A stretch of DNA of 64,000 nt from a virus. Lineage: Duplodnaviria; Caudoviricetes. The translations under genes and the position numbers were made by a program. Below are positions 438 through 28,268 of this stretch, one piece after another. The number at the start of each line of letters is the position of its first letter. The stretch's first letter is position 1. The notes under the pieces were generated by a model that saw nothing but the letters and a program-made list of their open reading frames with translations, did not search any database and was not told where the DNA came from. The DNA lies in IMG/VR virus record IMGVR_UViG_3300021426_000006, positions 1-64,000 of that record; one strand, 5' to 3'.

Positions 438-3400
438 TTATTTTTTATTATTTTTATAATCAGAATCTGTTCCCCATAACTAATCGAATGCACCACCTAC
501 AGAACTCCATACAAGAGGGTCTTGTTGTAAATACCAGTTAGCTCTACTTTTAAGGGCTCCTGGGTACAAATCTTCATACATATTTCCAAATGGAGTAATT
601 CTCATAATGTTTCTGAAAGCTCTGCTTCTACCTGCATACGATCCACTTTTTATTTCTTCAAGTGGACTATGTCCGCTTAAACCGATTAAGTCGGATAAAG
701 TTGTTACAGCTATCATTAAATCGTTTAATGGAGACAACAGTGTTGATATATTCTTGATAACTTCTAACAACGCTGTCGGGTCAAGTACTGATATAAAAGA
801 ATTTACTAATCTAACAGATGTAAGATACCCGAATCTTTCCCACCAATCATCGTCACCAGCACCTTTTGCAAGAGCTTTAAATAAAGTACTAATTCCTACA
901 AGAGTTACTATAGATAAAACTTCAAATAATACTTTCTTTGCAGCATAATTATATAAATCTCTTGTTTCGTCTGTTACGTTTACAGCGTTGAACATTTTTC
1001 CAATAATAGGTAGCTTGGGTATCATCATTTTCATCCAACCTATTAATCCTTGGTGTATTCCAATGTTGACATTACCAGCATCAATATCCACATAACCGTC
1101 CATTATATCATCTTCTTTAAGAGTGGCTCCATCTTTAATATACCTCTTCTAAAAATCATGAGTATAATTCCAGTTTCTGGCTATAACTGTAAACAAATAA
1201 CTACGCAACGTACCTATAGGTTTTAATAATATCTATAGACCGTATCCAGGGTTATCGGAATTTGGAGTTATACCTAAAGCTTCTGCAAGACGTTGATAAC
1301 ATTTTCCAGTAACACGATTTTCTATACGCTTTGTTATATATTGAGCGTATTCTTGTTTTGGCTGCAAGATACCTTCGTCGTTTAATTCGTATGCATCGTC
1401 TAAAGAAACTGATGACTAGCTGTATATTAATTTTGCTAAGTTTTTTGATTCTTTATACGATAAATGTCTTGCACTTTTTTGATATGCCTTTATAAGACTA
1501 TGTTTTGTATAAAATCCGGTTTCTATAATCCCGTCTCCCTATATAAAACGAACGTTTGATAGAGCCATTGTAAGCTGAAATGCACTATTACTATAATCAC
1601 CAAGAGAAAAACCAAACATACCATCTATATTTTCACTCAGTAGTTTTATAAATCTATTTCTTTCAGTACTATGATAAGATTCTTTTATACTTTTAGAAAT
1701 ACCAAAATGTTGCATTTTTGCAACGAGCATGTTTGTAACCTAAATTCCACCAGCATTGCTAAGAGTATTTGGTCCATGTTTTATTATTTTTCTCCAAGCG
1801 TTTATAAAATCCCTTATAGAATAATCTTTACCTAAAAATGCTTCCAACATACCTCTTATAGCAGATTCAAAAAATCCAACGCTCATTGACGTAAAATTAT
1901 AACCAAGCATTAATTTACGACCAAGTCTTGTAAAATGTTGGATAAATTTAACAAGCAGTTGTTGTTTTTTACCAAACTTTACTGATTGATCACCTATTTT
2001 TGTACGATTGTCATACAACTGGTCATCCATCATATTTCTAAGCTGTTTGACAATATTTTTTGTAGACTGTTGATCGTTTGCTTCTGAAAGACCATAATCC
2101 TCTCTTTTTGCAAGTTGTTCTTTTATTATTTCTAAATCAGAAGCAAGCTGAGTCTTTACAACAAAATTATTAGCCATTTCGGTAAAAGCTATAACAGAAC
2201 CGATAACATCGCTTGTTATTGCTTTTTTATTTTCCAGCATCTTCACAAAACGAACAGGTACGTTGTTGATACGAGTACCGTTTGCACGAATTCTTATTTT
2301 TTCATCGTCGTAGTTTATATCATCGTCGTCTCTATCGTTTAGTTGCCATTCATTTTTCCAGTTGTATTTTAATGCATCAAAAACTTCTTTCATGCTACCA
2401 GATCTTCTTAAAATGGTAAGTCGTCTACCAGTAATTTGCGGTAATTTGTAATTATCTGCGTTTGAATTTGGTATATTTTGGTTATTTTTGCGCATCAGCT
2501 AAATCAATGCATCGTATAAAGCATGTATTTTATCGTTTTGTTGTATAATATCCCACTGTTTACTGTTTTCGTACTTATCGTGTTTTGGCTAAACAAATAC
2601 CGTACTATCTCTATCAAAATTCTAATTATAAAATTGAGAATTTTCATCTATATCAGAAAACTATTGGCTATATTGTACAGTCAATGCACCAGGAAAACGC
2701 TTTTTCATGCCATTGACTGTAAATTGTGCATCTAATTTACTGCCATCGATAATTGTACCCTTAGGAACTTGTCTAGTAAAAACACTTACCAAACCAACGC
2801 TCTCGTGTGCGCCACCAGACTTATCATACCATGTATAAGTGTACTGATATTTTTTAATCAATTCATCTTTTATTTCCTAATCTGTTCTATTGTCTGTTGG
2901 GTGATTATTTCTATAATCACGAAGATCTTTAGACAATATATATTCTATTAAACTAGTAGTGCTATCATACATAACCAGTTCAGTACGGAAATAAGTATCC
3001 CAACGTTTTTCTTCGTCTGTTTCATGCTAAGATAACTGCTCTATAAGTTCTCTTATCTAAGAATCAACATCTTTTAATTCGTCCCAGTACTTAATTTGTA
3101 AACGCTTCTATTCTATGTCAATGCCGTTTTTATCGAATTCAGATATAAGCTTTTTAAGATCGTTTCTTCTCTAACGTAACTCGTCTAGACGCGGATCATT
3201 TATCAACAACACTTTCGACAAAACATAATCGTAAAAAAGAGGATTTACTACAACTGTTGTGTTTAATTTTCTAAACCGTTGCTCTTCTATAGAATTTAAT
3301 CCGTGAACCTTTCTAATTTCTTCTATAGCTGCGTTAAATCGCTATTCATTTTGATTATATTTTACACGCTCGCCTTTCCATTTATTAAACTTAGTTATTT

Positions 3401-6221
3401 CTTTTGCTATTCTAAATTCGTCACCAGATTTGATGGTTCCGTCAGAATAATATTGATTGCCTAATTGCTTATATTCTGTTTGTAACTGCATCAAATTCTA
3501 TTGGTCTTCTGGAGATAACTCCCACGTAGCTTTAATAGAACCTGTTGCAGTTTTTATTACAGGACACTTTGACATAATATTATTTATTCTGCTTTGTATA
3601 TTAGACATTATTTGTCTAGTATCGGGAGAAAGCATTGTTCGACGCATGCGATAATAATCTGCAGTAAACATTCTATCTGCATTTTCACACTGCCATTCGT
3701 CAATAGAATCTGCATAATCTTGTAAAATAGATTTGACAATAGGATTGTCGTCAGGCGGTAGGATAGGATTATTATAATAATCCCATGTTATTTGAGGAGC
3801 GTTTGGACCTAATTGGTATATTAATTCTTGATTAGCTTTATCTACGGCCTTTCTTTTATTTTCTTCCATATCTTCATAAAATTTACCGTGATTTAGCTAT
3901 CTTACAAAATATCCAGTAGGGATTCCTTTTTCGTCCATTTCTTGAAACACAGACTATAATTCTTTTAATCCTAATTTACGCATCTGTGGTAAGGCTTCTA
4001 TATAGAGCTTTATTATTTTACCAGTATCTTTCAATGTAGCATGTCTTATATCTGCATTTGCCGACAATATCATATTTCTGACAATTCTTAACACACGAGA
4101 TTTTGATCTGGAGGCAAGTCCTATATACGGCTACATAGCGTTTACATCTTCAAAAAACTTTCCTGTAATTAATTCGTCATCAAAATTTTCCAAAAACCTA
4201 TCTTTCTCTTGTTCTGTAGTAATATCTTCTAAAACACCTTCATTACCATACATGAAGTCGTGTGTAATTCTTTTAGAAACTACTTCTACAGCATTTTTTA
4301 CTCTTCCAGATATAAGAGAACATGTCATATTCATGTCCCTTAATATTGTTCCGAGTTGATACAATACTCCATTGTGAATTATAGTTCTTCCATCAGACCC
4401 AAGTTTTTCTAGAATGATGTCTATAATAGGTCTATAAAATCCATCTATTGTATTTAATACAGACATTAATTGTTGAGAAGTAACATTATTATAGTTCGCG
4501 GCATATAATAAATCCAACTCTTTAAGAATTCTGCCAAGCTCGTCAACGCCTTCTGATACAAACAACCTTAATTTGTCGTCATATTCAAAAACATCATTCA
4601 GCTTTTCTATTAATTGTTGTACGTCATTTGATTTTCTCGCTTCCTTTGGAACAGTGTGCGTGTATTCGTATACTCTTGTAGTCAACCCGCGCATTATCTT
4701 ATCAACGACTTCTATTAAATCTTTATTTCTAGTTTGGGAACCCTACTAATCTTGTTGACGCTGTGGAACATTTAAATTTGCATTACGTATAATTCGAATT
4801 TCGTCAATGTACTGCATTAATAAATCAGCGCAAACCCTGTTTACACAAGTAGGGTCAGAAAATCTACTAACAACACTTCTATAATGATCACTTATGATAA
4901 TAGTAGCTTCGTTAAAATCTTGGTCAGATATATTCAAACCACTCAACGTATGTTTGAAATATTGTGCGTATTCATCGTATTGATCTTTCAATATACTATC
5001 TGGGTTAGCAGAATATCTTTCAAAAAAATCAATACTGTCTTGGATAAAAAGATTTACTGCGTCTTTTAAACCAAAACCGTTTAATCGTCTATCAAATTCT
5101 ACAACAAATGAATTCGGTGGGGTTTGAAATACACGTCTAGCAGTAGGATCTATAAAATGTAATACGTGCTATTCCTATCTAAGAATTAAAGCTTGTTCAT
5201 TTATTCTGAAAGCAATAGACGCTCTTTGTAACAGATATTCTTTTATTGGGTTTGAAAGAAATCTAAAAGCAATTTTAATCATTTCTCCGAATTTTTTCCA
5301 AAACCCTTGAACGTCTGTTGATCTATACATTATTTCGTCAACAACTTTTTCTTCAAGTCTTACCTGCCAACCTTCAGATCTATCTCCAGAATCTAATTTC
5401 TGTACTACAGATTGAATTAATTCGCTATTCCAAAACATTCTGATATAGTGGTGAATAAGCTCGTGGTTAAACGTGGTAGGATCTGCATCAGTTAAACTTA
5501 TTTGTATAAGGTTAGCAGCAGCATCAAGTCTTCCTGTCTAATCATAGACACCCATTTTACCATTTTCTAGATACTCACAAAACTATATCATTACTTTGTA
5601 CCTACCTTGAGAATCTTTCTCTTTAGATACGAAATAAACATTACCATTTTCATCAATCTTTTTTTCAAGCCCAAAAGCTTTAATTATGTTTTTGTTGATT
5701 GAGTCTACAAGCTTTTTTTGTTTTTCTTTAAGCCATTGTATTTTTTTAGAATGAATTTCGTAAGATGAATTATTTTTTACATCTCCCAAATATTCGTTCA
5801 TATCATCTTGTATTAGATTATGAGTTATATCAGAAAGACTAATATAATCCATTTGATCTAATTTTACAGGCTGATTTATTACATCAGAAAAATCTATAAT
5901 ACGCGGAGTATAATCTATTTTAGGCTCTCCGTTTTCATCAACAACAGAACTGTCTAAAGAAGACATGGTCCAATCTCCGCCTATTTCGTTATAGAACGAA
6001 GAGTAATACATTTCTGCTTTTTCGCGAATAGCGGCTTCATAATCATAGTTATTTTTTGCAAGTAACTATTTAAATAAATCCGATCTTTCTCCGTATGGAG
6101 TAAATTCTAAAGAATATCCATTGTTCTATGACAGAACATAATAGGCAGCATCTTCGCTGCCTAAAATGTCTGCATAAAGATCTAGCAATGGTTTATTTTC
6201 ACTTTTTATTAAACATACCAT
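438..6221 (-). CDS. Large virion cargo/ejection protein (~1927 aa, TAG=Gln) with a zincin HExxH motif and C-terminal hydrophobic helices
   Basis: Fragments at 480, 1539, 1740, 2661, 3498, 4131, 4746, 5175 and 5583 share one frame and end in TAG. ATG at 6221 (MVCLIKSENK...NNGYSLEFTPYGERSDLF), TAA at 438. HELIH at 5451-5465. Position downstream of the RNAP matches crAss cargo proteins. Confidence 0.8.
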
Positions 6222-6233
6222 AACTATAATTTT

Positions 6234-9200
6234 TTAACATTCTCGCTTTCTATTATCTTCATCTCTTAATTTAGACCTAACCTTCTTTAAAATATCACCA
6301 AAACGATTTGGATATTTTGGTTCGATAGGTTGTCCATTTTCATAATTGTGAGTAAATTCTGAATCGCCTGTACGTAAAAGTTGATCAGCGGCAGCTTTGT
6401 TCTACTAGAAAGATCTTAACATCATAACTTCTAAAACTTTATCGCTAATAGCATTCCATTCGTTCACAGTAGTCTAAGACATAGGAATAGATCTTCCTGC
6501 GGATTTAACGTCTTTTCCTTCTTTAGACTTAATATATTCGATAAACTTCCAAAATTGATCGTCAGTAATATCTCCGTGCATCCAAGCAAAATATGCTTTT
6601 GAAGACTAGAAAGCGTGTTCAACACTATTAAATTTCATTTTTGGAGTATTTTTGGCTAATTCTGTTTCAAACGGGCGTATTGCAAAATTACTAAGACTAT
6701 TTGTTTTTTCATCGTATGAAGATACATTTATTGTTCCAGTGTTCTCAAGTATATAAATGCCAAATTTACCAGTATATTTTGGATTTGGTTTAACGACTGT
6801 AAATAATCCATACCTTTCATATAACTCTTGTGCAAGCCACTCTGCAAATCTCTTTGGTAAAGCTGCTTTACCCATTGCGGCAGAAGCTGGGAATACTATA
6901 GTATCGCCATCAAACGAAGAAAGTCTGTCGAACATTGCTTCATTTGCTTCCTTAAACATAGTAAAGTCAGCGTCAGTATCCTAAAAATTACCTTTATCGT
7001 CATAGAACCATCTACCGTGATTATCTTGTTGATACTTCTTCACAATAAGTCCAAACGCATTTGGATTGTATGTGGTATCATCGCTCATTCTAACAACAGC
7101 TTGATTGTTTCCAGTAGTACCTTCTGTAACATTTACCTTAAGAGTAGAACTACTTGGAGTATTCTTACGTCTAGCATATTCAGCCTACATGTTTTCTGTA
7201 AACACAACGGCCGTTCTTGGATTTTTTACAGATTCTGAAGTATATGTTGTAGTAGATACAGATACTTTTTTCTAGGTATTTGTAGAAGGAGTTGCTCCAA
7301 AATCGACAGCATTGTTATACCTATCCTCAAGAGACTTTATATATTTATTATATTGTTCCTCTTCTCCAGGTTCTACTAAGTCGAGAACATTATCTTCAAA
7401 CTTCAAATCAAATAAAAATTTAGTAACGTCATCTAAGAAATTTTCTTGAGTTAAATGTTTATTCCCTCTAAATATAGACACAAGAAGATCTTTGAACCAC
7501 ATTTTAAATTCCTCGAATAAGCTAGTATTCTAAGTTTCATCGAAAGTAATGCTTTTCATTACGTCCTAAACTTCTTTGTTTGATATTGCGCAGGAAATAA
7601 ATTCACCAACATTCTCATACGCATGAGCTAATATTTTTGCTCTGCCTGTAGATTTATTAAACACGTCTTCCTTATTGGCTATAGATATATCTCTAATATC
7701 ATTGAATTCGGGGTCTTTTTGCAATTTCCTCTGAAACAAATCATAATACAACTATAATTTTTCATCAGAAATTGCTCTACCCATAGAATCGAAAGGTATC
7801 GCATTTCTAGTTGCTATGTGTAACAACTCGTGTAATATATTTAAATATTTTCCACCTTGCAAATCTGCATATTGATAATATATTGTCGAATATTTACCAG
7901 TAGATGCTGCCACAGAAGATTTTCCTGATTCTTTGTCAGAATATGGAGTGTTAGTTATAAGTATTTTAATATCCTACTCATTAAACCATTTAAACAAAGC
8001 TTCTGTAAGTTTTACAAGAGCTTCACGTTTTTCTTTTGTATCGTATCCAGGTAAATTATCATTCTTAAGATGTTTTATTAAAACTTCTGCAAAAGCGTCG
8101 TTTACTTTAGTAAATATTGGCTCATTTTTTTGAGACTTTTTGATAGAACTAGTACCTTCGTACTCTTTTATCGAACTATCTTTGTCCTAAGAAGATTTGT
8201 CATATATTTCGTATTTATACCCGTTGCCGGCTAAATACTCTAACAAAGGCTCATCTTTTTCAGAAACTAAGAATGTAACGTTTTTACCAAATTGATCTAT
8301 ATGCTATTTGAAAGTCTAATCTAAAGGATTTCCTATACGATTGTCTTCACGCATTACGAGAATCGTAGATGGCATCCAACCTTCATCATACAAATCCCTG
8401 TTTGTTACAGACATTACTGCATTTGTACCAGATTCATAACCTATATTATATGATACCTGTCCGTCATAATCATCTCCAAAAGACCATTTTCCAGGATTGT
8501 GTCCTCTATCTGTAATAGTTTTAAGAGCATCTAATAACTAAGTACCAGATTTAAGTATAAACTTATCATCCTGTTTCTAGTAAACAGATCCGTTTGTTTC
8601 TCCAATAAATCCTTCAGCTTTTTCTATTGCTGTCTATAAGGGTGTTTTTTCAGATTTAACTTCTTCTCGATGTTCTCCAAACGTTTTACTATAAACTTCA
8701 TTTATAGCATTAATCGCAGCAGTTCGTTTTTCATCACCTATATATCTCACAGGAGTTTTTTGCCTTGCTGTTCTTTCTTCTATATTAGGATCTATAGAAC
8801 GAGTGCCAATACCTGCAAAATTCTTTGTAAGTTTTGGTGTTTCTTCTACAACAAAAGATTTTTTGTCAAAATCATATGTAAACCACTATTCTGTTGATAG
8901 GTTGAATACGTGAACAGGTTTACCTGAATCTATAGCCATCTACACAGCCCAACCAGTACCTCCATCAACCTTGCCGTACTTAAGTTCACCTATAGCAAAA
9001 ACAGCATCTGAATTCTTCACCTGATTCCAATTACGAGCCAACAAAGGAATAATATTTGCTTTACGTTCGTCTGACACATTTTTTAGTCTTTCTAATGTGT
9101 CATCCGCCTGTAATACGTGGGACATACCCTCAATAAAATCTTCCCTACTTATCTATGCGTTGCCGTTTGGAGTTTTATTACCGTAGTAGTAATGAGAAAA

Positions 9201-12200
9201 ATGTTTATCATCATCGGGCATGCCGTAAGAAACACCTATTCTCCACCAGTCTGTATCAGATCCATATGCTCCACCAGAATGCATATGGAAGGTTTTTGGG
9301 TCATTAGAATTATTTGGAGACTTATTATGAGATTTTGCTTGCTCCAACTAAGCTTTTAATTCCAAACACTTCGCAAGCATTTCTTTTGCTATATTCTTTT
9401 CTTCCTAAGTAAAAGCAGATTCTTTGCCTACAAAAAGCAGATCGTCTATCATTTGAGAGCGACCATTATTATTTCTTGCATAAAAATTCTTTATATACTC
9501 TAAGTCGTTATACAAAGACAATATATTTTGCCGTATAGAAAATACTCTATAGTTATATTGCTGAGCAAGGTGAGCCTATCTCATCTTTTCGTCTATATCT
9601 TCTAAATAAGAAACAATAGGTTTGATGTTTTTGCCGAGATCCGTGCTCTACCACATATCAGATTCTTCTATCTTCTTTACAGCGTCGCTTATCAAATCAT
9701 TAAGGTCTGCAATAGAGAATACAGAAGAATATATATAATTTTCTATATTTTTTAACGTTGGATTTGATAATATATCAAGTTCGTCATTAAAATTATATAT
9801 TTTATACTGACCCAGTTTATACATAGAATTATTTGTAATTTTATATATAGGAATTACAGTATTTTTATTAAGCTATATTTGACCGATTCTTTTATATATT
9901 ATATATTTCTGCTGGTTTTCTACGTTTCGTATTGGATTAAGCACACGTATGTACGGGCGGTTTAGTATATTACCGTACGAATCAACAACTGTCTTGCTAT
10001 TCCATGGAGTACCTTTTGAATCTATCTTTACTGGTATAAACACATAAGGTATTCTACTTACACCGTTTTTGTTTACAGTATTGTTAAACACTGAAGCAAA
10101 TGGGGTGTACTATGGATCGTCATGTATCGTAGTTGTTTCACCTGTAACTTTGTCAGTAACATCTCTATCACCTTCCAACGATACCGGTTGAGAAAAATCA
10201 AAATCGTCACAAAGTATTGTTTCGGCTCTATCTACTATAGGATTAATAACGCTATTTTCATACTGGATAGACTAGTCTCCGCTGTCTGCAAATAAATAAG
10301 AAACGTCGTTAAGTTCTTCTATAAGGTTTCTTTCGTGCTCAAAAAGACCATAATCTTCCAGCATTTCAAACGGAACATACTTAAATAGATTATTTCCGCC
10401 AGTATCGTTTGATGTTAATAGAGAATAAAACATTAGTTTTACAGCAAAATCTTTTGTAATCTAATTGTTGTATAATTCTCTCCATGCATCAATATACTAA
10501 TTCGCTTTTTTGTTATCGTCGGTGAATGGTATATGAATCTTAATAAAATCAAGTATGTCTATTACATTGTCTGTTTCACTATATTCATCTTCTACATGAG
10601 CATCGTGTAAAATATTTAGTAGCGCATTGTCTTTAAATTTTTCAGCAACACTCATTATACGGAATCCACGTTTGCCGTTTTCCTTTTTTTCTCTTATAGT
10701 TAATATCTTAAGTCTAACTAATTCGTGAGCTAACGAATATGTGTTTTCTCCATCTTTAAACAAAGTAATTGGATCTATACCGTGACTTTTCATTGCACGT
10801 ATAGCCCATTCATTCTTTACTGCGCCTAAAATAACAGAACGCAATTTAGTCTGTTGATCTTCACTTAAAGAACTTTTCTAAAAATCTGATTTTATTCTAC
10901 GCCATATATACTAAAACCCGTACGTTGCTTCTATAGAATCCTATCTCAATATCGTCGTTAGAGTGTTTATTGCCTTTTTTGTCTTATTGTCTATAAATGA
11001 CAATAATGCTTCGTATGTTGGCTTCGTATAGCCAGATTCTGTTATATCTGTTCCGCCGTTTGCAATAAATTGACCTTGTATTTGTGAGTTTGATGTTTCT
11101 ATAAATTTTCCAAAAGATTGTATGTTTGTACCAAACCCTTGCACATCTGTAAAACCTTCTGTCGTTACACCAAATAACCCAGAAATATCACCGAATACTT
11201 TTGTGGAATCTGAAAGACATTGCGATATAAATCTATCATATTGTTGCAAATAATCCATTTGCGCCGCAATAGTGGATCCATGTTTCTTTGTATCAATTTT
11301 CGTAAACTTTACAATATCCGCAGTAGTTTTAGCCTGATTTGAATTTATCTGATTAAATATTACAACAGACATGTATCTCTGTATAGAACTTTCAGCTACA
11401 TCTGAATCCTTACTGCCATATTTAGCTTCTTGGTATATCTTAGATTTTGACGTATCCTTTTGAACCATGTCATCCATATACGCCTTTTCGAAATCTCTTT
11501 TATAAAGACCGTTCAATGCTGTTCTTGCTAAAGATTTATCCCTGTCACTAATTTCAGACTTACGGATTAATTTATATACATCCTTACCTCTAAAGAGAAC
11601 ATCCCTAACAGTAACATCTCGACCTAATGCACTACTTAACACCTACAATCCAGAAACATTTATAATATTTCCGTCCATATCTGCGTATTGAACAGTTATA
11701 TCGTTTGTTATAACCTTATCTAAAGCATCATCTGGTATAGCTTCGGCAAGTTCTTTTAAATATGTTTCAAATACTTCTTTCTGAGCATCAAATAAAGATT
11801 TGTTGGACTTTTTTAAATATTCTCCAGTAACACCGTTTTGTCTAGATGCAAGTTCTTTTATCACAGGTTGATTTAAAAACCATAACCCGTTTTTACCAAA
11901 CCCAGCTCTTATTAAAAAGTTAGAAATATTATAAGTATACTTGTTTATATTAAGCTTTGTTACAAATGGGTCTTTTGCTATATCTACGTGCGCGTTAATA
12001 CCGCCAGATAGCCAAGACATTATACTGTTTCCGTATATATCAAAACCTCTATTCAACGTAGCCATATCAAGCTTGTCTTCTCCGAGGTTTTTTAGATAAA
12101 GTCCTTTTAACTTAACATCATATATCATAGTGTATATATGATTGTTGTTATTTAAGGCATACGGACCAATACCTATTTTACCAACTACAAAATTGTTTTT

Positions 12201-15200
12201 CTAAACACTTTGATATGCAATTGTATCTTGCGACATTGATTCTACAACGTTAGATGCTGACGGATATAAATCCTTATATACATCTTCCCACAAAACAGTA
12301 TCTGCATCAATAGGTCTCCATTTTGTATCGTATGAGTTTTTGTCCATCAATAAAGTAATATAGCCGGAGAATAATTTATTTATAAATGCTTTGTGTAAAG
12401 TATCTAAAAATAAATCCTATTTTCCAGGCTCTATATTATCTAAAAACGTAAACATTTGGTCTTCGTTGTTTACAGTTTCTGGGTTAATATAAAGTCTCGA
12501 TAAGAACAGTTTGTCAATATCAAAATCTGAGCCGGTAAGCTTTGTAAAATCTTTTGGTAAAATTATGCTATCCCTTATTATTGGAACAACGTCTACAAAT
12601 TTAAGAGGGTTTATAGAGGATTGGGCCTATGTAGGAATACGATAGCTTATTGTATACGTTTTTGCGTTTTCTCCAACTAATTTGTGAGCAATAAGCCAAT
12701 CTCTACTTTCTTCAAACGTTTTGTTTTCGTAATCAGGTATTATATCTTTAAAGAAGTCTATAGATATAACGGCATCCATACTTCCATCTTCGTTTATAAG
12801 TTTTAGATCTTTGCCGTTATTTATAGTTTTAAACCCATCATCACCTTCCATAGCAAACACAGAACGCTGTACATATGCTGAACCAGGAGCTCTGGTATCA
12901 ATTATAGATTTTCCTATAAACGAAGAAAGAATACTATCAATCCAACCGGATTGGCTTATTGCAGATAATGGAGCGTTAAGTCTATCGTTTTCTTCGTCAT
13001 AATAAATAGCGTCAAACATGTTACTATTTGCATCTCTAGACATCATTTCGTCATGCAAAAAAGTACTCAATGCTTTTTTGTCTACCTGAGGAATCTGAGC
13101 AACTTTTTCTGAATCATCTATTACACTGTTTTCGTATATTACATTTCCGTATGCATCTTTTTTACAGAACATTCGCATAACTTGTTCAAAACCTATATCA
13201 GCAAGAACATTATAGCAATGCATTATTTCTGAATACAAGTCTCTACCTTTAATAGTTTGTCCTGTAAACGGACTAGTATAATAATCGTTCATACGCAAGT
13301 TACTAAGGGCAATCTTAATGGTTTGTGTACCGAGATTCATTGCCTCTCTTTCGTTTGGATCAGTATTTAACTGTTTGCGCAAAAACCTTATCTATTGTAT
13401 ATAAGTATGGCCGTCATACCGCTGATCTCCTAAGAACTGTTCTATTTTTATAGAACCTTGGCTTCCGGTCTTAACTGCAGATGTCATCATCATAACGTCC
13501 ACATTATTATTGCGCATTGCTTGTAATATTTTACCCATCTTTCCGTAAGAAATTTGTTCAAATATTGGGAACAATGCTGTCTTATTATAATATGGGGTCA
13601 TCAGAGTACCGCCTTGACCGTCATCAGATTTACGGAATCCTGTAGCTGTATATTTTTGAGTACCTACTATAACATCGATTATTGACTTATAAAGATCTTT
13701 ACCTTCTTTGGTCATTACATCAGCTCCGTGTTTTCCTCGAAGAACTTCAAAAGCGTATTTCATATCGTCATCCCACTTTCCTTCTTCTCGCAAAAGCCGC
13801 TCGCACATGCTATCTGTTATATAAGTAGCTCCGTCTGCAACATTGATAGGATCTTCTTCTTTTTTAGAATCTGTTTTTTTAAAATATTGCATCGCATTAG
13901 ATCTAGCCTTATTTTTTAAGACGTTTATTATATCTTTTGCGTAATTTTCAGCAGCTTCTTCAGTAAATCCTTCTTCGTCTTGATGTTTCTTCTTATAATC
14001 ATTGTAATATTTGGTAAATATTACATCTTCTGCTTTATCTCTATTTTTATACAGCTATTCTTGGAGTTCATTGCCGTAAGAATTAATATCCAATTGTGAT
14101 ACATCTGTTCCAGATAATATAGATGCAGCAGATGATACAAGTTCGTCAGTAGTAAACTACTCTATAAGAGCGTCTTTTCCTAACGTAGTACTTTCAGTAA
14201 GGTAGTCTTCTATTTCTATACATCTGTATGTACCAAGTTCCTCCATACCTTCAAGAGGATCTATGTCGTATACATTCACACCGCCGGTAGAAATATCGCC
14301 ACCTCTACGTTTAGTGTAGTCTACAGATATATCTGTAATGTGACCTCCTTTACTTTTCCATTTATAGAAAGATTTACTACCAGAAAACAATCTTTGGTAT
14401 TCCTGCATAGACATAAGGTGCTTGATAGTACAATCTAGCACATATTCCTGAATTGCGGAAGATATAGAAAATGTTTTTATAGGACCATAATGCTTTTCGT
14501 TCGTACTATTATCTACATAATCTTTTAATTTAGCATTTTGCCCAAATGCAGCACGCGCTCTTCTTTGAGCCATATCCAAGATTTCTATTCCATCTAAACC
14601 TACGTTTTCATAAAAACCTTCTGCATTTTTCTTTATTAATCCGACCTTTTCGATTTCTTTTATATCTTCAGCAAATCTATCTAAAAGAATCTTTTGCATT
14701 ATACGCCTCTGATCAAATAAACTAAGGCTGAAGAAATTTCTGTCTGCACTATTAAGATTGTCTCTAGGATTTTCAGTATCTTTGTTCAGATATATTTTAT
14801 CACCGTTCGCAAGTGGTAAGCAACAAAAAGACGAGAACTTCATTCCATTTTCATCTGAATAATTTTTAATCTTTTTTCCAGGATATTTTTTATAGAAATC
14901 TGTTTCGTATGCTATTATTGCTTTTTCTACAGCATCTCTTTCTGATTTAAAATATGCAATAAATCTATCGAGAATTTGTGAATCGAGTATTGTTATTTCT
15001 CCTGTTCTTGGGTCTACTTTATAACAATCGGTATTTGATCTCTTGCCGGTAAGCATACCTACCAAAGGAATACCTTTAAGTACATGGTACGTCTTTTTAT
15101 CAGAAACTGTTGGAGACAACATATATCCTTCATGAAGAAGTTCGAGTTTAGATATTATATCCTCGTTTAATTCTATTTCGAAGTAATCTCTACCTTGGTC

Positions 15201-18200
15201 GCCAATGTTTGAGGTTTTCATACCAACAAACGTAAACACGTCAAGCTTTGCATCTTTTCTAACAGTTCGTTTACCAGTATTCTGGTCGGTTTCCAACAAA
15301 ACAGAACCAGACGCAAACGAATCTTCTTCAAGCATCTGAATGTATGCGTCGTTTTCGTCCTTAGCATTTATTATATCTTTTACGTCGTTGATATAATTAC
15401 TTTCCGACACAATATAATACTGATTGTTGTGAGCCGCTACAGCCATCAGACCTTGAGTACGAAGATTATACTCACTTTGAAGATTTGCTAATCTCTTTAT
15501 AAAACCTGAATCGAAAGCGTGTGTTATTGTTTGTAAAGTTATGTCTTCGTTTACAGATATTTCAGATTGGTTTATATTTGAAAGTCTGGCGAAAAAATTA
15601 GATGGTCTATATTCTGAGAATTGATCCGCAAGCATTGTGTACAACGCATCCATTTTGTTCGACACAGTTGGGTTGTCTTCCATTATCTGGTTTAACCACA
15701 TATCTATCACTTCTTGCCGTACATCTACGCCGCATTCAAGTAGAGCATTATGCAAATAAGTTTCGACATCTTCTGCGTCGATTTCGCTAAACAGTACGCC
15801 GTCTTTTTTATCGAAATATCTCCACTTTAACAAAATGTCTTGTGGGTTTTGCTGTCTATATTGGCTATACGCATATAAGAAACTCTGTTTTCCAACAAAC
15901 AAGTCGTTGTATATTTGTTGAAATACGTTTTCTTGATTCTTCTTAAAACGATATACGTGTTCATCTCTATCATATTTCAATATACCTGTCAATCCAGTAA
16001 TAAGCTAATCTTGCCAGTTTCTTGGCATCTGTATGATGCTTTTTTGATAGATAGTTGTTTTTATGTTTATGGATTTATGAGACTATCCTTCCGTGTCTTT
16101 TTTGTTTTCTACAACAGCCCATACGTGATTGTTTTGCTGCTGTCTTAACGAACGTATTATTTTAATTATAGCAGAATCTATGTTTGCATCAAAAAACTAG
16201 CCATCTTCTCTCTATGTAGGATTACTCTTATTGCCTTCTTCGTGTACAGGTTTCCATCTATTTGCGATCATATTGCTTAAAGAATCGTAGAGATATTTAA
16301 ACATGGCTTTATCCGGTCCAGTATGCGCCAACCTATAGAATTTATCAAGAACATCTTTTGTAGATTTGCAGTTTGCAGTATAATACAAAACTTTTCCGTA
16401 TACATCTTTGAATGGCATGAAAGTACTCATACCAAATTCATTATGATCCGTTGTTTCTCTCCACTTAAGATTTTCTCCTTCCATATATACTTCTCCGTAT
16501 GGAACCGTACTAAACATCCATTTCACCTCTCTAGAAGCTTTATCGAATGGGCTTATCTCAAATGATTCTTGTAGTAATTCTCCAAACGGATTTGTTCCAT
16601 CTTCTCTACCGCTTATTTCTTCGTCCTCCTTGCGTTCTTCAATCTTCTTCCTGGTCTCTATTCTCATATCGGATATAAATTCATCCATTATTTGAGTCAT
16701 CGCGTCCCAATTTGGAAGATCTAATGTAACAAAAGTTTTTGGAACTTTATACGTTTTTGTAACAACGGTACCATCTTTAAGCCGTACTTGTTTTTTAACT
16801 TTTACTTTCTTTTCGTATAAAATATAACCTTCTGGGTTATCCTCAGTCTTTAGTTTTTCGTCAGTAGGTCTTGTTATTTTAGTAAGTTCTCTTATAAGAG
16901 GACTGTCAGAATACGAAAACGTTCTTTGGAACCATTGTAGGAAATCAGTATCTCTTTCGAGTCTTATGCGAATAGCTTTAGCGGAAAAGTTTACCTTGTC
17001 AATATTCTTTCCGAGTGGTGTAATATTATCGTGACGTATCCATGCCGTCATAATTCCATCTACAGCAGCTCTAAGTTGCGCTCTAGATTTTAAATTTTGT
17101 AAAGTGAACTTTTGGTTCGTAGCATGATTCTTAACAGTATATTCGTCATTTTCTTCTGTTATAGTATCTACAGTTGGATTTTCGAACAACTCACGCATTG
17201 TACCGTATATCTGTTCATAGAACGAAGGTTGTTCGTGCAAAATATACTTTTGCCACATTCTACTGATAAACGCAACAACAGAATCGTATACAGTTCTTAT
17301 CTTACTGGTTTGTTTAGGAATCAAATTGTTAGATAAATTTGCTATTTGCTTTGGCGCAAGCTCTTTTTGTTTTAACAATTCCTAAAATTCTTCGTTTGTA
17401 AAGAATTCAGCAACAAACTCTTTAAAGTTTCTAAAACCGTAAGCCTACTTCTACTCGGCTGTAAAAGTGTCTATACAATATGAATAAAAAACTTTTGAAG
17501 CTTTTGCAAAAGCTGTATTGTTTTTTATAGAACCTAGAGTAAATATGTGTACAACCTCGTGAGCTAACGTCTTTATTGGGTGTTTTGCAGATTTGAATAT
17601 GATTATAGTCCACGAACCATCTTCGTTTTGTTTTACAGAACCTTGTTTTTGACGTTCAATTCCGTTTATTATAGCAGTTTCGCCATCTTCTTTAGACAGT
17701 TTTACTTTAATATCAAGTTTACCAAACTTAGGTAATGTTCTTTTTATAAGTTTAAATAAACTTGGATATTTCTTTGCAATAGCTTTAAATACGTCGTCGG
17801 TAGACTTTATGTTTTTTATTACCGACAGATCACTATTTGGTGAGACAATTGGTGACGCATAACTATATTCGTCTTCCTCCTCCTCATCTTCATCGGTAAC
17901 CTCTTCCCATCCTAAGCCTAAAGCTTCTTCTTCAGTAATTACATCATTACTAGCTTCTGTATCTTGAGTCTTTTGCTATATTTCTTGCTGTACTGCTTGC
18001 TGTATTTCTTTTTGTTCTTCTTCAACCTTTTCTTCAACAGTTCCTTGTAGCTTTATATTGTGTATAGAAAGTGTCGTTTTGCTTTTAACAAAATATCTTG
18101 TACCCAAAAAGCCGTTTTTAACAAGCCATTGACACAATGTGTCGTTGTTAAACTGTTCCTTTGTTATAACAAATCCAGAGTCAGAATTATTTATTTTTAC

Positions 18201-21200
18201 TTTAAAATCGTCATTGGAATTAGAAAAATGATCGTATAGCACAGATAACGTTGTTTTGCTCAAATCCTTAAATTTAACGTTAAATGTGTCCCAACTCGGC
18301 ATTATTTCACAATCCTATAATTCTTTTACAAACTGTTCAAACTGTTGATTGTCAAACAATATAAATTCTTTTCCATTTACTCTAACGGCGTCACCATTTA
18401 TATACACAACGTTTGGCAACTCTTGTTTGTCCGAGTTGTGTACTAAACGTTTTCCTATAAATAAATGAAGAAGTTGGTTAGCAATTGTTCTATTTTTTTG
18501 AGATTCTTCAGTTGCCTGATGATTTGTCATTGCCATTACACGATAACAGTTTGCAATGAAATACGCCAGCTGTTTGTTGAATTTTGATCTGGTCAAAGGT
18601 ATTGTAGATACTGTTTCTTGATGTTTAGAGTTTTCTAAATGCTTTTGTTTTACAACCAAGAACAATTTATTCTACCACGATTCTTCTGACTCTGTCTGTC
18701 CAAGTATAGCTGAAGCTTCTTTCAAACCGGTTTGTATTACACCTGTTTTTTGATCGTAAAAGCCGATGTCTACAATTTTACCGTCATCTTGTTTATTCCC
18801 CAAGTTATCTATATCTTTTGAAGATATAATACTTTCGCTATCGTTAAGACCAGTAGGCTTACTTCCTGAAGGTTTTTCGTCGTATACAGTAAACGTCCTG
18901 TTTACATCAAACGTAATTGTTATTTCAGGATTTTCTTCTAAAAGTTTCAGGATTTTCTTCCATTTTTCTGTATACAGCGGATGTGTAGACTACTCATTAT
19001 CTGTATGATTTTTTCTTCCGTATTTTCTATTTTTGTTTTTGTGCAATACTATATTATAAGTCTTGCCTTTATAATCTACCTAATATCTTATATACGCAAC
19101 TCCTTCTGCATTATGCTGCAACGTGGCTTTAAATACACCATTGGTAATAAGATCTTTTTTATCAATAATATCAGATCCATCTACAACATCGATTTCTATA
19201 CCAACCGTTTTACTTTCATCAGGCAAAGCATTTATTTCGTCTATGCGTTTTGCTATTTCTCCCTTTTTACCAGCCTTTGATTCTTCTTCAGACGCTACTT
19301 CTATTTGATGCAACTCTTTTGATATATGCTCGTCGTAGTATTTTTTAGCATTTTGTATCGTTTCGAGAGCTTTATCGAGTTGTGCATATGCTTCTGCTAT
19401 ACTAGAAGGTTCTTTTTCTACAACGGCATCGTCAAATTTACGCAATCTATATCCACTAGTTTTATGCTGTTGTCTATATTTTAATACGGTAGTTATAGCA
19501 TCGTTTACCCTGTTTATCTCACTTTTTACCTTCTCGTTAGCTCTGACGATCAATTCTTTTAACTCCAAAAGCTGATCTTCTTGGTCTGCATATTTTGTTA
19601 TAGAATCGTCGTTTGGAATTAGAGGTATTTTTTTGCCTATATACAATCTATGAACGCTTGTGTATCCGTCTACAACTACTGGCAACAGACATGTAGAAGA
19701 TATTTGAATTTTTCTGCTATCCAATATACCTTTAACCTAAATATCTGCAATAACACTTCGTTCTTGATGCTGAGAAAAAATAGCTTTTGTATTTCCTAAA
19801 GATAGCATATACTGTTCAGCAGTCTGTTGCTGCTTTAAATACATATTATTCGCTATCGTATATATATTTATTATGTGAGCATTTCCCTCTCTGTCGACAG
19901 CTATAAAATCTGGATCCGAAACAACCTCCTGTCCATTTATTTTTGTTACGGATGGAGTAACATTTGTCACAAACTTATACCCGTACACATTTTGCATATT
20001 GCGTTTATATAAAACAACTTGTCTGCAAAAGTTTTTAAATGTATCGCGATCTATATAGTCAGGACGTTGAACAGGATTGTTATTTAGTATTTTTATGGCA
20101 GCGTCTCTAAAGAATTCGTTTGTATAGTAACTTTCCCATGCACGAGGATTACTCTTCAATATTAACAGTTTGATTGCATTTTGATCATTGTTTAATATAG
20201 CTTTGTATATTGAATCTATTATAAACAAATCAGCGCTTTTCATTATACTTCCAATATACACTTTCAGATTAGTATCATCTTTGGTTTTTAAAAATCTGTG
20301 TATATTAAATCTTATTTGAGCTGCAGTAAGTCTATATTTTTCCGCAAGAGTAGCACCGCCTTTCTTAGACGTTTCTACTGGATTAGCAATATACGTTCTG
20401 CCAGACGGAATAATCCTTCCATCCTTAGTGACATAAAACCCATCAGTTAAATATGTTGGAGCATTACTATCTTGTTCTGTTAATTTTGATATAGTTTCCT
20501 ACTAAAGATCTTTATCTTCTGTAACAGAACCCTGGTCTTGATCTTCGATTATAACCTAACTTTTTTGATCTTCTGGTATAGCTACAGATTCAGGCTGTTC
20601 TGGCAGCGGTGTTTCATCTTGAAGTTGTTGGTTATCTTCTGTTGGAGCATCTTGCTATTGTTCCTCCTGTTCGGTAGGAATAGCAGAACTTTCTACAGCT
20701 TCTCCCTATACTTGAGAAGCTGATCCTTCTACATTACTTTCTTGTTCAGTTACTTCTGGTTCTGTATCCAATGTACGTTCTTCCGTAACTTCTTCTTTTT
20801 GTTGCTCGTCTTCTGCAGTAGCTTCTTCTGTAGTCTATTCTGCAGTATCTTCTATTATAGTAGTCTCTTCCGGTTCGATTATAAATGGTTCTTCTATCTC
20901 ATCTTCATCATCTACCATAATAGTACTATTTCTAACTTTATCTTTTATTTTATCAAACAACGAAGAAAGTTTGCTACTTATTCTTGAAAAAATAGAAGGA
21001 GTTTCTTCAATTTCTGTTTCTTCAGAAACATCTGCTTCTGTTTCTTGCGTATCCTATTCTCTTATCTATTCCAACTCGGCAGAATCTACAGAACCAGTTT
21101 CAATTTCATTGTCTTCAGGTCTTATATTTTCTTCTTCACTCTCAATATTGTAATCGATTATCTCCTACAACGCTCTATTTTTTTGTACATTTTGTATAAA

Positions 21201-24167
21201 CTGTTTTACAATATTATGAGAATTGCGTCGGACCTCTTCTAGTTTTGGATTTACATCAGTACTTATACCTATATGCTTTATTATATTGGTGTATAAGTTT
21301 TGATTGAGCATACGCAATGCAGAATTTCTATAAATATCCGCAAGTTTCATACCAGAATTTTGATCCAACAAATAACCTTTTAAGTGTTCGATCTATTGGC
21401 TATAGGTAGTATTTACAGAATCAAACTGCTCACCCGAGTATAATTCTATATCGTTTTTTAAGATATTATATTTGTCTTTCAATAAAGAAATAGATCTATC
21501 TAACTGATTAGACGAAAACGCAAGACCTTTATTTTTTGCATACTCGCGTATAGTTTGTATATCCTGCAAATCATTTAAGAGACTTGCGATCGATATAGCC
21601 TCTGCTACGTTTTGATGCAATTTTAACAATCTTTCTCTATTGCTTATAGTACGCTCTACTACGGTACCATCTTCTTGGCGTTGTTTAAACGTAAAACTAT
21701 TATCATTAAGGGCGTCAAAGTCTTCTGCAGACATCTACTCTTCACCAGCTATCCTGTTTAACGCTTCCATTAAATCAGGATCGTTCATAAGTCTTATTTT
21801 CTCAGCAATATCTTGATTTTCTTCCCGTCTGTTTTCATAGCTGAGTCTTTGATAATAATCATCGATAGCGATTGCGTAATTTGCTTCATCTGATCCAAGT
21901 TCATATCCTAAAGATTCCAATCGCTCTCTAGTAGTCTTGTGGTTCACGCGTGACATTATTCTGTTCGCTTGTCTACTAAGTTCATCAAAATCTTCATCAG
22001 AATACGGAGTGTTTTCTCTGTTTTTATTTTTTTGTTTAGCTCTGTCGATAGCTTCTAAAATTACATCGCTGTTTTTATCAAAACCGTATTTTGCAAAAGC
22101 TGCACCTTTTAATATAGCATCTTGTGATTCTAATCTGTTTGCGACGGCGGAATTAAGAACCTGTTCACGCAAATATCTAGAAGCGTCATATGCTTTTTTT
22201 ACACCTATAGATTCCTGCAAAGAAACTGTAGCGCCAGTCATAAGACCTCCCAAAATCAATCCGCCTTTCCAGTTAGACCAAAATTCACTATCGTTTTGAT
22301 AAGGTGAATCTGCCAAACCAATTTGGCTAAGAACCGCTTTAAATACCTATCCACGTTTTTTTAAATCGTTGACAAACAGGTTCTTCATGTTTCGAAGATT
22401 TATGTCGTCGTCTGCCTGATTTATAATTTTTTCTGCGTCGATTGAATTTAAATATTGAGTACCTTCTTCTGCAGCTTCTGCTAGCGCCGTAACTCCAAAC
22501 GCAGATGCAGCGTGCATAGCTTTGTCGAACATTATTTGATGTTCTAGTTTTGGTAATATGTTGTCTTCTATAGCCTAAACTTTCCGCATAGTGCCATTCC
22601 ACAACCTTCGAGCAAATCTGTTTTGCGATATAATACCACCGGTTATTCCTCCTAAAACTTCTCCTTCAACACCGAATCCAAGAAAATTACCAGTAGCACC
22701 TCCAATTGCCGCACCGGCGATAGCTCTTCCCAAGACTTTACTCTTTTTACCAATGGCTCCGTATGGAGTAACCATCAATACAGATTCCAAAATATCGCCG
22801 CCTGCGGTGGCAACCATATCTCTTTCAAACTGTGTGTCTGCGCCAAGATCACCAAGTTGTCTTGCAGATTTATAATAATCGTACCCGTTTTCAAGTTTTC
22901 TTGGATCTAGTCCACCAATACCGCCTTGGAACATAGTGAAGGCAAGTTCATCATCTATGAGTTTAGTCGCATCGTCTGCATCCAAACCGTATAAATTTAT
23001 AGCAGTGCTTCTTGCTTTAGAAAGCATTTCATCTCTAAGATCTTTATTTTTCTTTATACTTTCCAAAGCCTTTTTTGTAGACGTATCTGATGCTTCTGCA
23101 TGATTTTCTTGCAACGACTGTTGCCATCCATTTCTAAGTGCTTCTAAAAACGATAATGCTCTAACGCTATTTCTAAGTACAGTGTTTGGAATTTTTCTAG
23201 CAACTTTTTCAATACCTACAGAAGTAACCATCTATTGGCCCATGTCTTTTGAATCAGAAAAAGAACTACCTATTATACCTGGAAGATTATAATAAGCGTA
23301 ATTTCCGTTACCAGATTGTTCTACCATTCTGTAATAATCACTAACAGGGTATTCGGTTTGCCACCACAAAAGGTCTTCTTGTTCTTCTTCTATCTGTTTT
23401 GCTCTAAAGTTTTTATAACTCTGTCTAGATATAATAGCGTTTTTATAGTTTTCAAATCTGTTTTCACTTTCTGGGGCAGTATAAGAAGATCTATCTATTT
23501 CATCTCTTCCTTTTGAGAATAGATCGTAGATACCGTAACCAAACCCACCGATAGCTCCCAATACAGCACCGATCACACCACCTGCTGCACCACCTGCTGG
23601 ACCGCCAACTATAGAACCTGTTGCACCGCCAGCTATAGATCCAGCTCCAGCTCCTGTTGTCGTATTGTCTATAACTTCTCCTATAGCTTCCATTATAGGA
23701 TTATGCCCAGCGAGATTTATAAGGCTTTTATCGTTTTTTACTAATTTGTTAGCCTTATCTACAATATCAGCTTTTTTAAGGTATTCGTTGCGAGCATTGT
23801 TTAAAAGTTTAGAATAATGTGAAGCGAGAGAAGAATTACCGTCGTAAAGATTCTTCTTATATTCTTCTTCGTATGTATCGATTAGCTCAGATAAATTAGA
23901 TAAATCAGAATCGGTTATTTCGGAAGCAGCCTATAATATTTCTATTTCTTTTTCATCGTTTCTATTATCATCGTTCAAACTGCTTATCGACGTTTTGTGT
24001 TTAGCAGTCATTAAACTAGAAAACGAATCCCACCAATTCTCAGACCCCCAGTAAGTACGTTCCCTACTGGGGGCATAAGAATATCCATAAAGCCTATCAT
24101 TGAAGTTTATATCGTTTGGTGCGGAATTCTAATATAAAGACAATCTTGTATTAAAATCGTTGTTCAT
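6234..24167 (-). CDS. Giant virion-packaged two-barrel RNA polymerase polyprotein (~5977 aa, TAG=Gln)
   Basis: More than 20 fragments from 6606 to 23693 lie in the same frame. ATG at 24167, TAA at 6234. Catalytic LTGSDFDIDKL (DFDID 12513-12527) is preceded by YRIPT*AQSS, DGATYIT, SAVKTG and LRKQL motifs typical of crAss-like RNAPs. HEVVH at 17547-17561, HELLH at 7818-7832. Confidence 0.88.
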
Positions 24168-26001: not shown

Positions 26002-28268
26002 GCTTGGTATCTATTTAACATTGCATTCAACATTCGGATGTTCATCAAATCTCTAGTAGTAGCTCCTGTCTGATTATAAATATCTGTCAAGAAACTATTA
26101 TATATCTTATTTCTGGCGGCCAATGCCCTATCCATATACTGCTTATCATATTGCGTGGTAGCTATCCTATTGGAAGCATCTTTGTCGCCAACGTTTATAG
26201 CAGCGTTAGCCCAATCAGAAACATATTTATTATTTTGTATCTGAGCATCATATATAGCATTGGCTTTAGCACGCTGTGCTCTATCTACAGCAGCCATGTG
26301 ATATAATTGTTTTTGTCCGGCAGTAAGAGAAGACTGACTCGCCAACTGTTGCATATACGCGTTTAACTTGCTATCTATATCTCGTAAAACTGGTATATTA
26401 TTAATTCGCAATCCAGCCAATTTTGGTAAAGCCATACCTGCATATGTATTAGGACGATAACTATTTATCTTTGATGTAGGCTGTTTTTTTGTGTTTATTG
26501 CTCCAATTATAGATGACGCAAATCCTGGTAGTCTTGATGCAAGTATCTCCCAAGGTTTTATTTCAGGTATTCTTCCTTTATCTATACGTTTTAAATTTTT
26601 GTCTAACCCAGGTTTATTATTTTTGGGGTTACTTTGCTGAGGATTTGTAATATTATACGACTCTAATCCAAAATCAATGGGCGGAACAATACTAGATACA
26701 TTATCTGGTGTAAGACTTGAAGGTTTTTTATCAGGAGAATTCTTTACTGGCGTTCTATTACTGTTGCCATAAAAATAAAAAGGCGGTGTGGTTGCAGATC
26801 TTGACTGTGGGATTAGTTTGTAAGCCAAATTATCAGTATCTGGCTGTTCTGTGCTACTCATTCTCGGGTAATAAGAAACCGCACCAATAGAATTATTATG
26901 CTTGTCTGGGAACATTCTTGGAGACCCAGTATCAACGATACTGGTTGGGATACGTCCTATGTCTGTCAAATTGGCGCCTACTGGAACACCCGATATACTT
27001 TTTAAGTTATCGAACAGGTAACTATAATCTATGTCGCCTATATTGTTTGTTATATTCGGTGTATATTGAGCTGCTCGTAACAATTCCCCAATTTTATTTG
27101 GTTTTTTACCGTATACGTTTGTGTTAGGTAAATCTGCAAGCAGATCATCATAAAAAAGAATTGCGTCTTCTCCAGTTTTAGCCGTAATATATCCGTTACG
27201 CCTATTTTTGTTATTCATATTATTTCTCATATGTACATATGATTGCAAATCCAATAATCTTTGCGGTATGCCTGCAGCTTTGTACACAGGCCAGTCTTCC
27301 GCAAAAGTATTACCTGTTTCTGGGTTAAGAAGTTCTTTCTTTTTAGACGCTGTTAATACAGCATCTCTTCCTCTAAGGAATGTAGGAGCGTTATCTCTAT
27401 GCCCGTTTTTAACTTTATAGCTATTGTATGTCAACGTATCCACAATCTATTCACCTTTATTCGTATAAGAGTTCTGTGGCATATATCTTTTACCATATGC
27501 CGTATTTACCATACCGGCATTCCCACCTCTTGTAATAGGCATTGCATCTTTACCTCCTTCTGCATGTCCGTTCCTAAGATATTGTTCGTAAGCGTTATTA
27601 AAAGAAGCCGCATTATCCAATGCTGCTAAATCCTTAGCTCTTGCTATTTTTCGTTCTTGCTCACCTTTCTTTCCAAAAATTAATTTACCGGCTGCTGCAA
27701 GAGGATTCCCGCTAAGCACATCTGTCAATACACTTTTAGTACTCCAATGATCTAGATACGGCTCTTTGTCTATATTTGTGTCTATTACTTTAAAATTAAC
27801 ACCTCCGAAAGAACTGTTACTAGTATTTTGATTTGATTTTATTTCATCCGCATCTACAGTTTTGTATGTAGCCTCATTTAAAAACCCTTTCGCATTCTAC
27901 GCAGCAATTTCTGCTATAGCTCCCCAAGGACCTAAACCAGCAGATCCAATTGCGCCTGTTGGATTTGGAGTTGTTTGCTACCGTTCTCTTGTTTGGGCCA
28001 AACTAGGTGTTTTGTATTGAAACTGTCCTTTACCGACAACATTTGGATCGCCACCATTTTTAGCGCTTAAATAATCGTTATAGCTTGGATTTGGTTTATT
28101 GAAAAATTGAGAAGTCTGATAAGGATTTTCAGGTATATAATATCCACCGTACTAATAATTAGTATTTGGAGCTGTAAGAGGTCTTGTTCCAAAAAAACCA
28201 GATCCATCCGCGCCGCCATAATATCTAGGAAATGTATTTTTTATAAATTTTCTATCTTTTAACTGCAT
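25998..28268 (-). CDS. Virion cargo protein, C1-like by position (~756 aa, TAG=Gln)
   Basis: Fragments at 25998 and 27447 are in one frame. ATG at 28268 (MQLKDRKFIK...), TGA at 25998. Gly/Ala-rich segments. Confidence 0.7.

Follow-up and report, generated by a model that had tools for sequence, protein, structure and literature searches.

An Array of SLOG/DprA-Like, HExxH, DUF7831-Related, and NADAR Modules at the C-Terminus of a TAG-Recoded crAss-Type RNA Polymerase Polyprotein

The Giant Polymerase Gene

The stretch of DNA analysed here (the window) covers positions 1 to 64,000 of the IMG/VR record IMGVR_UViG_3300021426_000006, a complete genome of 103,222 bp with direct terminal repeats from a crAss-like phage of the gut (Caudoviricetes). 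Positions 6234-24167 of the minus strand carry a gene for a crAss-type virion RNA polymerase (RNAP) polyprotein of 5,977 amino acids (aa), the core of which matched crAss-like phages only. The last ~1,030 aa of this protein are formed by five modules which are, from the N- to the C-terminal side, a SLOG/DprA-like domain, an unnamed module referred to here as mid, an HExxH zincin-like module, a DUF7831-related domain, and a NADAR domain.

The gene is a single open reading frame (ORF) running from 24167 to 6234 when TAG is translated as glutamine, with 68 in-frame TAG codons and no internal TAA or TGA. With the bacterial code (table 11) every ORF between 4695 and 10940 was shorter than 150 aa, and the array was broken into fragments. 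An initial annotation, made from the nucleotide sequence of the window, had stated that standard-code annotation hides the array and that the array is in frame with the polymerase. Both statements hold, since no TAA or TGA separates the two regions with TAG read as Gln, and every peptide that it quoted was found in frame. Considering that three TAG codons of the array sit at columns with a conserved Gln in the homologues, the glutamine reading is directly supported. One of them is the Q of the NADAR motif FQ..K, which in the alignment is also Q in E. coli YbiA and T4 gp30.3, and the other two belong to the DUF7831-related domain. A suppressor tRNA with a CUA anticodon was not found by ARAGORN in the complete 103-kb genome, though 68 TAG codons are read through in the giant gene; the tRNAs detected were only Met, Glu, Gln(UUG), and Trp, located outside the window at 79132-79206, 79343-79415, 82838-82909, and 99557-99630. 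It was also noted that in the phage cr130_1 (NC_055901), which has a related giant of 5,801 aa named DprA-like in RefSeq, the stretch 9001-9600 has in-frame stops under table 11 and is readable with TAG as Gln, so cr130_1 is recoded too.

The catalytic motif of the two-barrel RNAP, DFDID, was located by a motif scan at aa 3881-3885 (12513-12527, minus strand), with a chance expectation of ~0.12. DFDxD has been described as a signature of crAss RNAPs (10.1101/2020.03.07.982082). A 600-aa stretch around the motif was compared by tblastn, and it matched exclusively crAss-like phages (82 records). Among these matches were g066 of phi14:2, annotated as catalytic RNA polymerase subunit (E 3e-9, 85% coverage), and the putative RNA polymerase of crAss001, and the closest annotated relative was cr130_1 (Suoliviridae), with 37-41% identity. 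By sequence, the product of the giant ORF is thus a homologue of the crAss-type virion RNAP of the phi14:2 gp66 family. Searches against PDB sequences with the whole C-terminus, the RNAP part, NADAR, SLOG, and the profiles A1 and A3 gave nothing useful, and the N-terminal 4,656 aa showed no informative family in Pfam or PHROGs.

The C-Terminal Modules

The protein ends in a NADAR domain of the phage gp30.3/AdfN type (aa ~5825-5972; ~6252-6713, minus strand), where a NADAR/YbiA-like domain had been proposed at ~6260-6700. The Pfam model PF08719 scored 46.1 bits against a curated cut-off of 35.1 and was covered from position 7 to position 162 of 163. By alignment with T4 gp30.3 and E. coli YbiA, the catalytic residues are Glu5850 and Lys5857, seven positions apart in SVEHAFQSSK (6597-6626); their counterparts in the E. 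coli C7 NADAR are E88 and K95, the roles of which have been described (PMC11543638, PMC11125620). In the last strand, His5940, within EFTHN (6345-6359), aligned with the His of T4 gp30.3 at a position occupied by Glu in YbiA. This His is the hallmark of gp30.3-type phage NADARs, Glu being found in YbiA and Asp in the NADARs linked to DarT1 (PMC11125620, PMC11543638). As judged by these residues, the catalytic set (Glu, Lys, and last-strand His) is intact and of the subtype of T4 AdfN/gp30.3. It is known that gp30.3 (AdfN) and other phage NADARs hydrolyse guanine-ADP-ribose and defeat DarTG1 (PMC11257639, PMC11125620). A sub-threshold match of the domain to TIGR02464, a riboflavin-intermediate N-glycosidase family, was also obtained.

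The SLOG/DprA-like domain opens the array (aa ~4954-5155; ~8703-9308, minus strand), in agreement with the SLOG-like domain announced at ~8790-9290. It matched PHROG 768 (DprA-like) with an E value of 3.6e-14 and contains the motifs HSGGAYGSD, RN..QV..SDAVFAIG, GGTGWAV, and FAGIGTR. The Pfam models of the SLOG clan remained below their cut-offs, with E values around 0.01 (cpYpsA, 16.2 bits versus 26.2; Nuc_deoxyrib_tr, 16.5 versus 28.8). Across the subfamily (alignment A3) the invariant elements were HSGGAxGSD, GGT (within DGGTGWAV), and GTR. The glycine-rich loop HSGGAYGSD aligned with SGGQTGVD of a genuine cpYpsA domain (Pfam E 4e-26) carried by P0033, one of the giant relatives, and together with the second loop, GGT, it gives the SGGxxGxD plus GGT pattern of the Rossmann-like fold of the SLOG superfamily. 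No relative in the PDB was found with the small profile available for this domain. The same subfamily, at 39-46% identity, was detected inside the 3,819-aa N4-like virion RNAP of Klebsiella phage Pylas (NC_049444, 8001-8642; aa ~974-1188 of the polymerase). Because the T7-type RNAP of Pylas is unrelated to the crAss type, the domain was recruited independently to two packaged polymerases, which fits recruitment to a delivered vehicle.

The DUF7831-related domain occupies aa 5641-5816 (6720-7247, minus strand) and was assigned by transitive Pfam matches and by structural matches. A search for its relatives showed that it is widespread and mobile, with 170 representative clusters (E<=1e-3) in phages and giant viruses, either at many positions within giant phage proteins or as stand-alone proteins of 140-350 aa. 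Of 40 short relatives, 18 carried Pfam DUF7831 (PF25176; best E 4.6e-13) and none carried Macro (E<=0.01), and the homologues with PF25176 showed 30-47% identity to the copy of the window. The structure model (pLDDT, the predicted local distance difference test, of 88) had no Foldseek match in the PDB; its best matches in BFVD were the DUF7831 proteins of cr131_1, Hyperionvirus, Yasminevirus, and Tupanvirus, with probabilities of 0.96-1.00 and E values of 1e-3 to 3e-2. Homologues and BFVD structures are therefore shared with DUF7831, whereas the PF25176 hidden Markov model (HMM) itself gave no direct match on the copy of the window. Since the family is reached through intermediate homologues (18 of 40) and through structure (BFVD), we filed the domain as DUF7831-related and not as a member.

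The same stretch (~6800-7220) had been called macro-like in the initial annotation. There is indeed a domain at this place, but its macro identity was not confirmed. The Pfam Macro HMM (PF01661) had no match in the C-terminal 1,321 aa (E<=1), it matched nothing in the 103-kb genome even at E<=10, whereas the control genomes were matched, and the conserved motifs of the DUF7831-like family (FTEN, AxIR, NAxxIxxKK, DTxxDF) differ from the macro signature. Taking into account these negatives, the lack of a PDB fold match, and the DUF7831 relatives, the domain is not a demonstrable macrodomain, and the assignment of 6720-7247 to that family was rejected. The ESM Atlas, queried with a 186-aa homologue (P0151), returned unnamed clusters only, and no close relative of this module was found in IMG/VR, either by protein or by exact 30-mer. 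A DUF7831-like domain and a NADAR domain (crAss-type profile) occurred together in 14 of 147 representative proteins, adjacent to each other in 10 of the 14, so the association of the two is a loose one, although small NADAR+DUF7831(+SLOG) proteins exist. In cr55_1 (NC_055869, 6001-6495) and cr1_1 (Suoliviridae, Boorivirinae), it was observed that a 4,551-aa protein ends in a DUF7831-related domain (43% identity) with no NADAR after it, a further layout of the C-terminal slot.

The mid module, of 200 aa (aa ~5157-5356; 8100-8699, minus strand), had no match in Pfam, NCBIfam, or PHROG. It is independent of its neighbours in the relatives and stands alone in the N-proximal slot of the giants P0033-P0035; a 100-aa block from aa ~5201 to ~5300 was 93-94% identical to P0003 and P0005. 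The initial list of the array covered the regions of the four named modules and overlooked this fifth one.

The HExxH zincin-like module extends over aa ~5357-5641 (7245-8099, minus strand) and contains HELLH (aa 5446) exactly at 7818-7832, as first reported. The giant protein has two HExxH motifs against 0.09 expected; the other, HEVVH at aa 2203 (17547-17561, minus strand), lies upstream of the RNAP core. HELLH, the block surrounding it, and a downstream GEF(I/V)S were invariant in the nine sequences compared (that of the giant protein and those of all eight known relatives of the module), and the Glu of the invariant GEF (7602-7604), placed in a later helix of the model, is a candidate third ligand. 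In the AlphaFold2 model (pLDDT 67), the HExxH helix (94-106) comes after a sheet of three strands and precedes a helical part. The Foldseek matches of the model were weak and enriched in zincins, the top one, non-significant, being the entry of the N4 virion RNAP gp50. In the N4 virion RNAP an HExxH subdomain comes directly after the RNAP domain (PMC13434306). The relatives of the module were one short protein, none of 500-2,000 aa, and seven among the giants; because there are so few, the zincin model is built on nine sequences. We regard a zincin as a probable but unproven assignment.

Arrangement of the Modules in Related Polymerases

With the last 1,028 aa as query, 360 giant proteins (3,300-6,800 aa) were recovered, the majority of them encoded on contigs of ~100 kb. 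DFDxD was present in 115 of the best 120, and the positions of the modules were counted in these 115, a survey of domain turnover at crassvirus RNAP C-termini that the initial annotation had proposed. The SLOG module was C-terminal of the polymerase in 95 and N-terminal in 16, NADAR in 67 and 15, and the DUF7831-like module in 15 and 5, respectively, and the module orders varied across the set. Homologues without modules on the C-terminal side stop 822-1,032 aa past DFDxD, while the protein of the window runs 2,096 aa past it. From the counts on both sides and these C-terminal lengths it follows that there are two accessory slots, between which the modules are shuffled, and that the C-terminal one is used here. 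RNase H and HATPase domains also occurred in the slots of the relatives, together with Pfam matches that we take to be a PIF1/RecD-type helicase and ART-PolyVal.

The identity to the three closest relatives was mosaic: 70-83% in the RNAP core, 93-94% in mid, 95-98% in the DUF7831-related domain, and 47-49% in NADAR. This pattern suggests a recent exchange of cassettes.

Genomic Context and Other Features of the Polyprotein

Upstream of the cargo/RNAP block lies the gene for the crassvirus muzzle protein (28262-32794, minus strand; Pfam crAss_MUZ PF25731, E 2.4e-103), and the order of muzzle, cargo, and RNAP genes agrees with that of crAss001. Downstream there is an ORF of 1,927 aa (441-6221) with no match in Pfam or PHROG and none to SLOG, NADAR, or DUF7831; HELIH is present at its aa 253 (5451-5465, minus strand). 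The protein P0168, also of 1,927 aa, was considered as a possible equivalent of this ORF and discarded, the equal length being coincidental and the ORF having none of those three domains.

Near the N-terminus of the polyprotein, a hydrophobic stretch rich in Gly and Ala (aa ~168-212; ~23532-23666, minus strand) matched PHROG 18476 (E 4e-5) and is similar to membrane-inserting segments of ejection proteins. It is followed, at aa ~1010-1230, by an acidic, Gln-rich region of low complexity.

Proposed Role and Alternative Explanations

Taken together, the data make it reasonably probable that this crAss-type virion RNAP is built as a polyvalent protein, with C-terminal modules that are delivered and exchangeable. 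The virion packaging of phi14:2 gp66 is established (10.1101/2020.03.07.982082), and mass spectrometry has shown the RNAP-associated gp47, gp49, and gp50 of crAss001 to be present in virions (PMC10172136). From the homology to the former and from the virion proteome of the latter, we infer that the giant protein is packaged and injected. The polymerase body would end ~820-1,030 aa after DFDxD and be followed by a slot of ~1,200 aa for exchangeable modules. The complete polyprotein would travel inside the capsid and be extruded into the host, either before the DNA or along with it, as for phi14:2 gp66 and crAss001 gp47/49/50. Once inside, NADAR could remove guanine ADP-ribose from phage DNA under a DarT1-type attack, or act on related N-glycosidic adducts or signals; the SLOG domain could bind or cleave signals derived from nucleotides or ADP-ribose; the zincin-like module may cut the polyprotein and free the modules; and the DUF7831-related domain could be a further module for handling nucleotides or ADP-ribose. 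Both delivery into the host and an anti-defence role of the array are thus proposals.

Several points weigh against this proposal. The presence of the giant protein, or of its C-terminal 1,000 aa, in the virion or in the cell is deduced from homology, and the enzyme activities of the modules are predictions. The SLOG domain scores under the Pfam cut-offs, and the high identity of mid and the DUF7831-related domain could stem from selection and not from recombination. In addition, phage NADARs are strongly substrate- and context-specific in vivo (PMC11125620), which means that action on a given defence system may not be taken for granted. A search for DarT (PF14487) gave no match in the phage genome and none in the control genomes either, and is therefore uninformative.

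It may also be considered that the modules perform housekeeping on the nucleic acids of the phage itself, such as repair of RNA ends, processing of NAD-capped transcripts of the virion RNAP, or dealing with a modification of the phage DNA, and that they are fused to the polymerase in order to act where the early transcripts arise. NADAR, Macro, and related domains have been tied as well to RNA repair and to the metabolism of small-molecule ADP-ribose (PMC9503650), the helicase, RNase H, and HATPase in the slots of the relatives resemble nucleic-acid maintenance, and the sub-threshold TIGR02464 match would agree with such a function. However, the last-strand His places the NADAR domain in the subtype of T4 AdfN, which has a demonstrated role against DarT1 (PMC11257639), and the fast shuffling and patchy distribution of the modules are typical of conflict genes and not of core functions. 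We regard housekeeping as unlikely.

The possibility that the array is not delivered was weighed with the HExxH motifs. Either the HExxH module or a protease of the head could cleave off the C-terminal region in the course of maturation, or this region could serve encapsidation or scaffolding, in which case the enzymes would act late in the producing cell or never. HExxH motifs stand on both sides of the RNAP (aa 2203 and 5446), the N4 virion RNAP has its own HExxH subdomain (PMC13434306) and N4 gp50 was the top, though non-significant, Foldseek match, and autoproteolysis of RNAP polyvalent proteins inside the head is one of the options proposed by Iyer et al. (PMC5512222). Nevertheless, pieces cleaved within the head would remain packaged, the same modules are N-proximal in other relatives, which argues against an assembly role tied to position, and the enzymatic residues are intact; an undelivered array is thus distinctly improbable.

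The interpretation of the initial annotation was that both classes of ADP-ribose eraser could arrive as protein, 6720-7247 being a macrodomain that reverses thymidine ADP-ribosylation of the DarT2 type and arrives together with NADAR; viral tandem NADAR+Macro proteins are known (PMC9503650) and small NADAR+DUF7831 fusions exist, but the domain has no PDB match by Foldseek, neither it nor the genome matches the Macro HMM, its family motifs are non-macro, and NADAR co-occurs in just 14 of 147 representative DUF7831-like proteins, which makes this version highly improbable. Of that interpretation, the in-frame array, the complete NADAR, the SLOG-like domain, and the HExxH motif are retained, while the macro/DarT2 eraser is lost: reversal of DarT2 and the joint arrival of both eraser classes have no basis here, as the domain in question is not demonstrably a macrodomain.

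Returning to the polyvalent polymerase, a bolder version, which we offer as speculation that is more likely wrong, would make the DUF7831-related domain a new enzyme family for ADP-ribose or nucleotide adducts, possibly of a very remote macro-like fold, that erases a second nucleic-acid modification as the partner of NADAR. It would move between crassviruses as a near-identical cassette, 95-98% identical in proteins that elsewhere share 40-80% identity, with the RNAP as a plug-in chassis for counter-defence in the first minutes of infection.

Among the phages of the human gut, crassviruses are the most abundant, and to our knowledge almost nothing is known of how they handle host immunity. Counter-defence would precede any phage transcription if the RNAP slot carries ready enzymes, an AdfN-type NADAR for instance, and the shuffling of the modules could then be a readable record of the gut host defences that matter. 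The analysis also flags the DUF7831-like domains as a widespread and uncharacterised partner in these arrays.

Comparison with Known Systems

The concept itself is already published, as polyvalent virion proteins, fusions to RNAPs, and virion-packaged NADAR, Macro, and SLOG domains have been described (PMC5512222, PMC9503650). In the literature searched, we found no paper linking crAss RNAPs to NADAR, SLOG, or DUF7831, or reading them as counter-defence. In the description of Yutin et al. (2021), the transcription block of crAss phages consists of large, multidomain proteins, and a figure shows the domains recognised in them (PMC7886860). The points that appear new are that the NADAR domain has a catalytic signature of the AdfN type, that the modules have a two-slot, cassette-like organization, that the domain first called macro-like is related to DUF7831 and has a fold apparently without a match, and that the SLOG subfamily is shared with an N4-like virion RNAP.

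Polyvalent proteins were defined by Iyer et al. (2017), N4-RNAP-like ones with zincin and ART domains included, and were proposed to be injected and early acting (PMC5512222). They unite 2-15 conflict-type domains in one polypeptide in a virion or packaging context, and the present protein joins the RNAP to five or more accessory modules. The likeness lies in a presumably delivered RNAP combined with a zincin-like peptidase and small conflict-type domains, with heavy shuffling; the difference from the N4-like examples is that the polymerase is of the two-barrel crAss type and not T7-like, and that the modules are SLOG, NADAR, and DUF7831-like and not ART. According to Iyer et al. (2022), NADAR, Macro, SLOG, and Nudix are often packaged in virions and counter immunity based on NAD or ADP-ribose through early deployment (PMC9503650). 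SLOG and NADAR in one virus agree with that network; the proteins surveyed there were mostly stand-alone and chiefly from myoviruses, whereas in this podovirus-like crassvirus both belong to the RNAP polypeptide as fused domains.

With T4 gp30.3/AdfN the NADAR domain shares the family, the spacing of Glu and Lys, and the last-strand His. A pairwise match to gp30.3 was not obtained, the identity being too low, and an AdfN-like activity is predicted from the residues. T4 produces AdfN as a small, stand-alone early protein once infection has taken place, whereas the domain of the window forms the C-terminus of a protein that is presumably packaged beforehand. Finally, phi14:2 gp66 and crAss001 gp47, gp49, and gp50 resemble the protein of the window in DFDxD, in core homology, and in their place downstream of the muzzle and cargo genes, and it differs from them in being a 5,977-aa fusion with a C-terminal accessory slot of ~1,200 aa.

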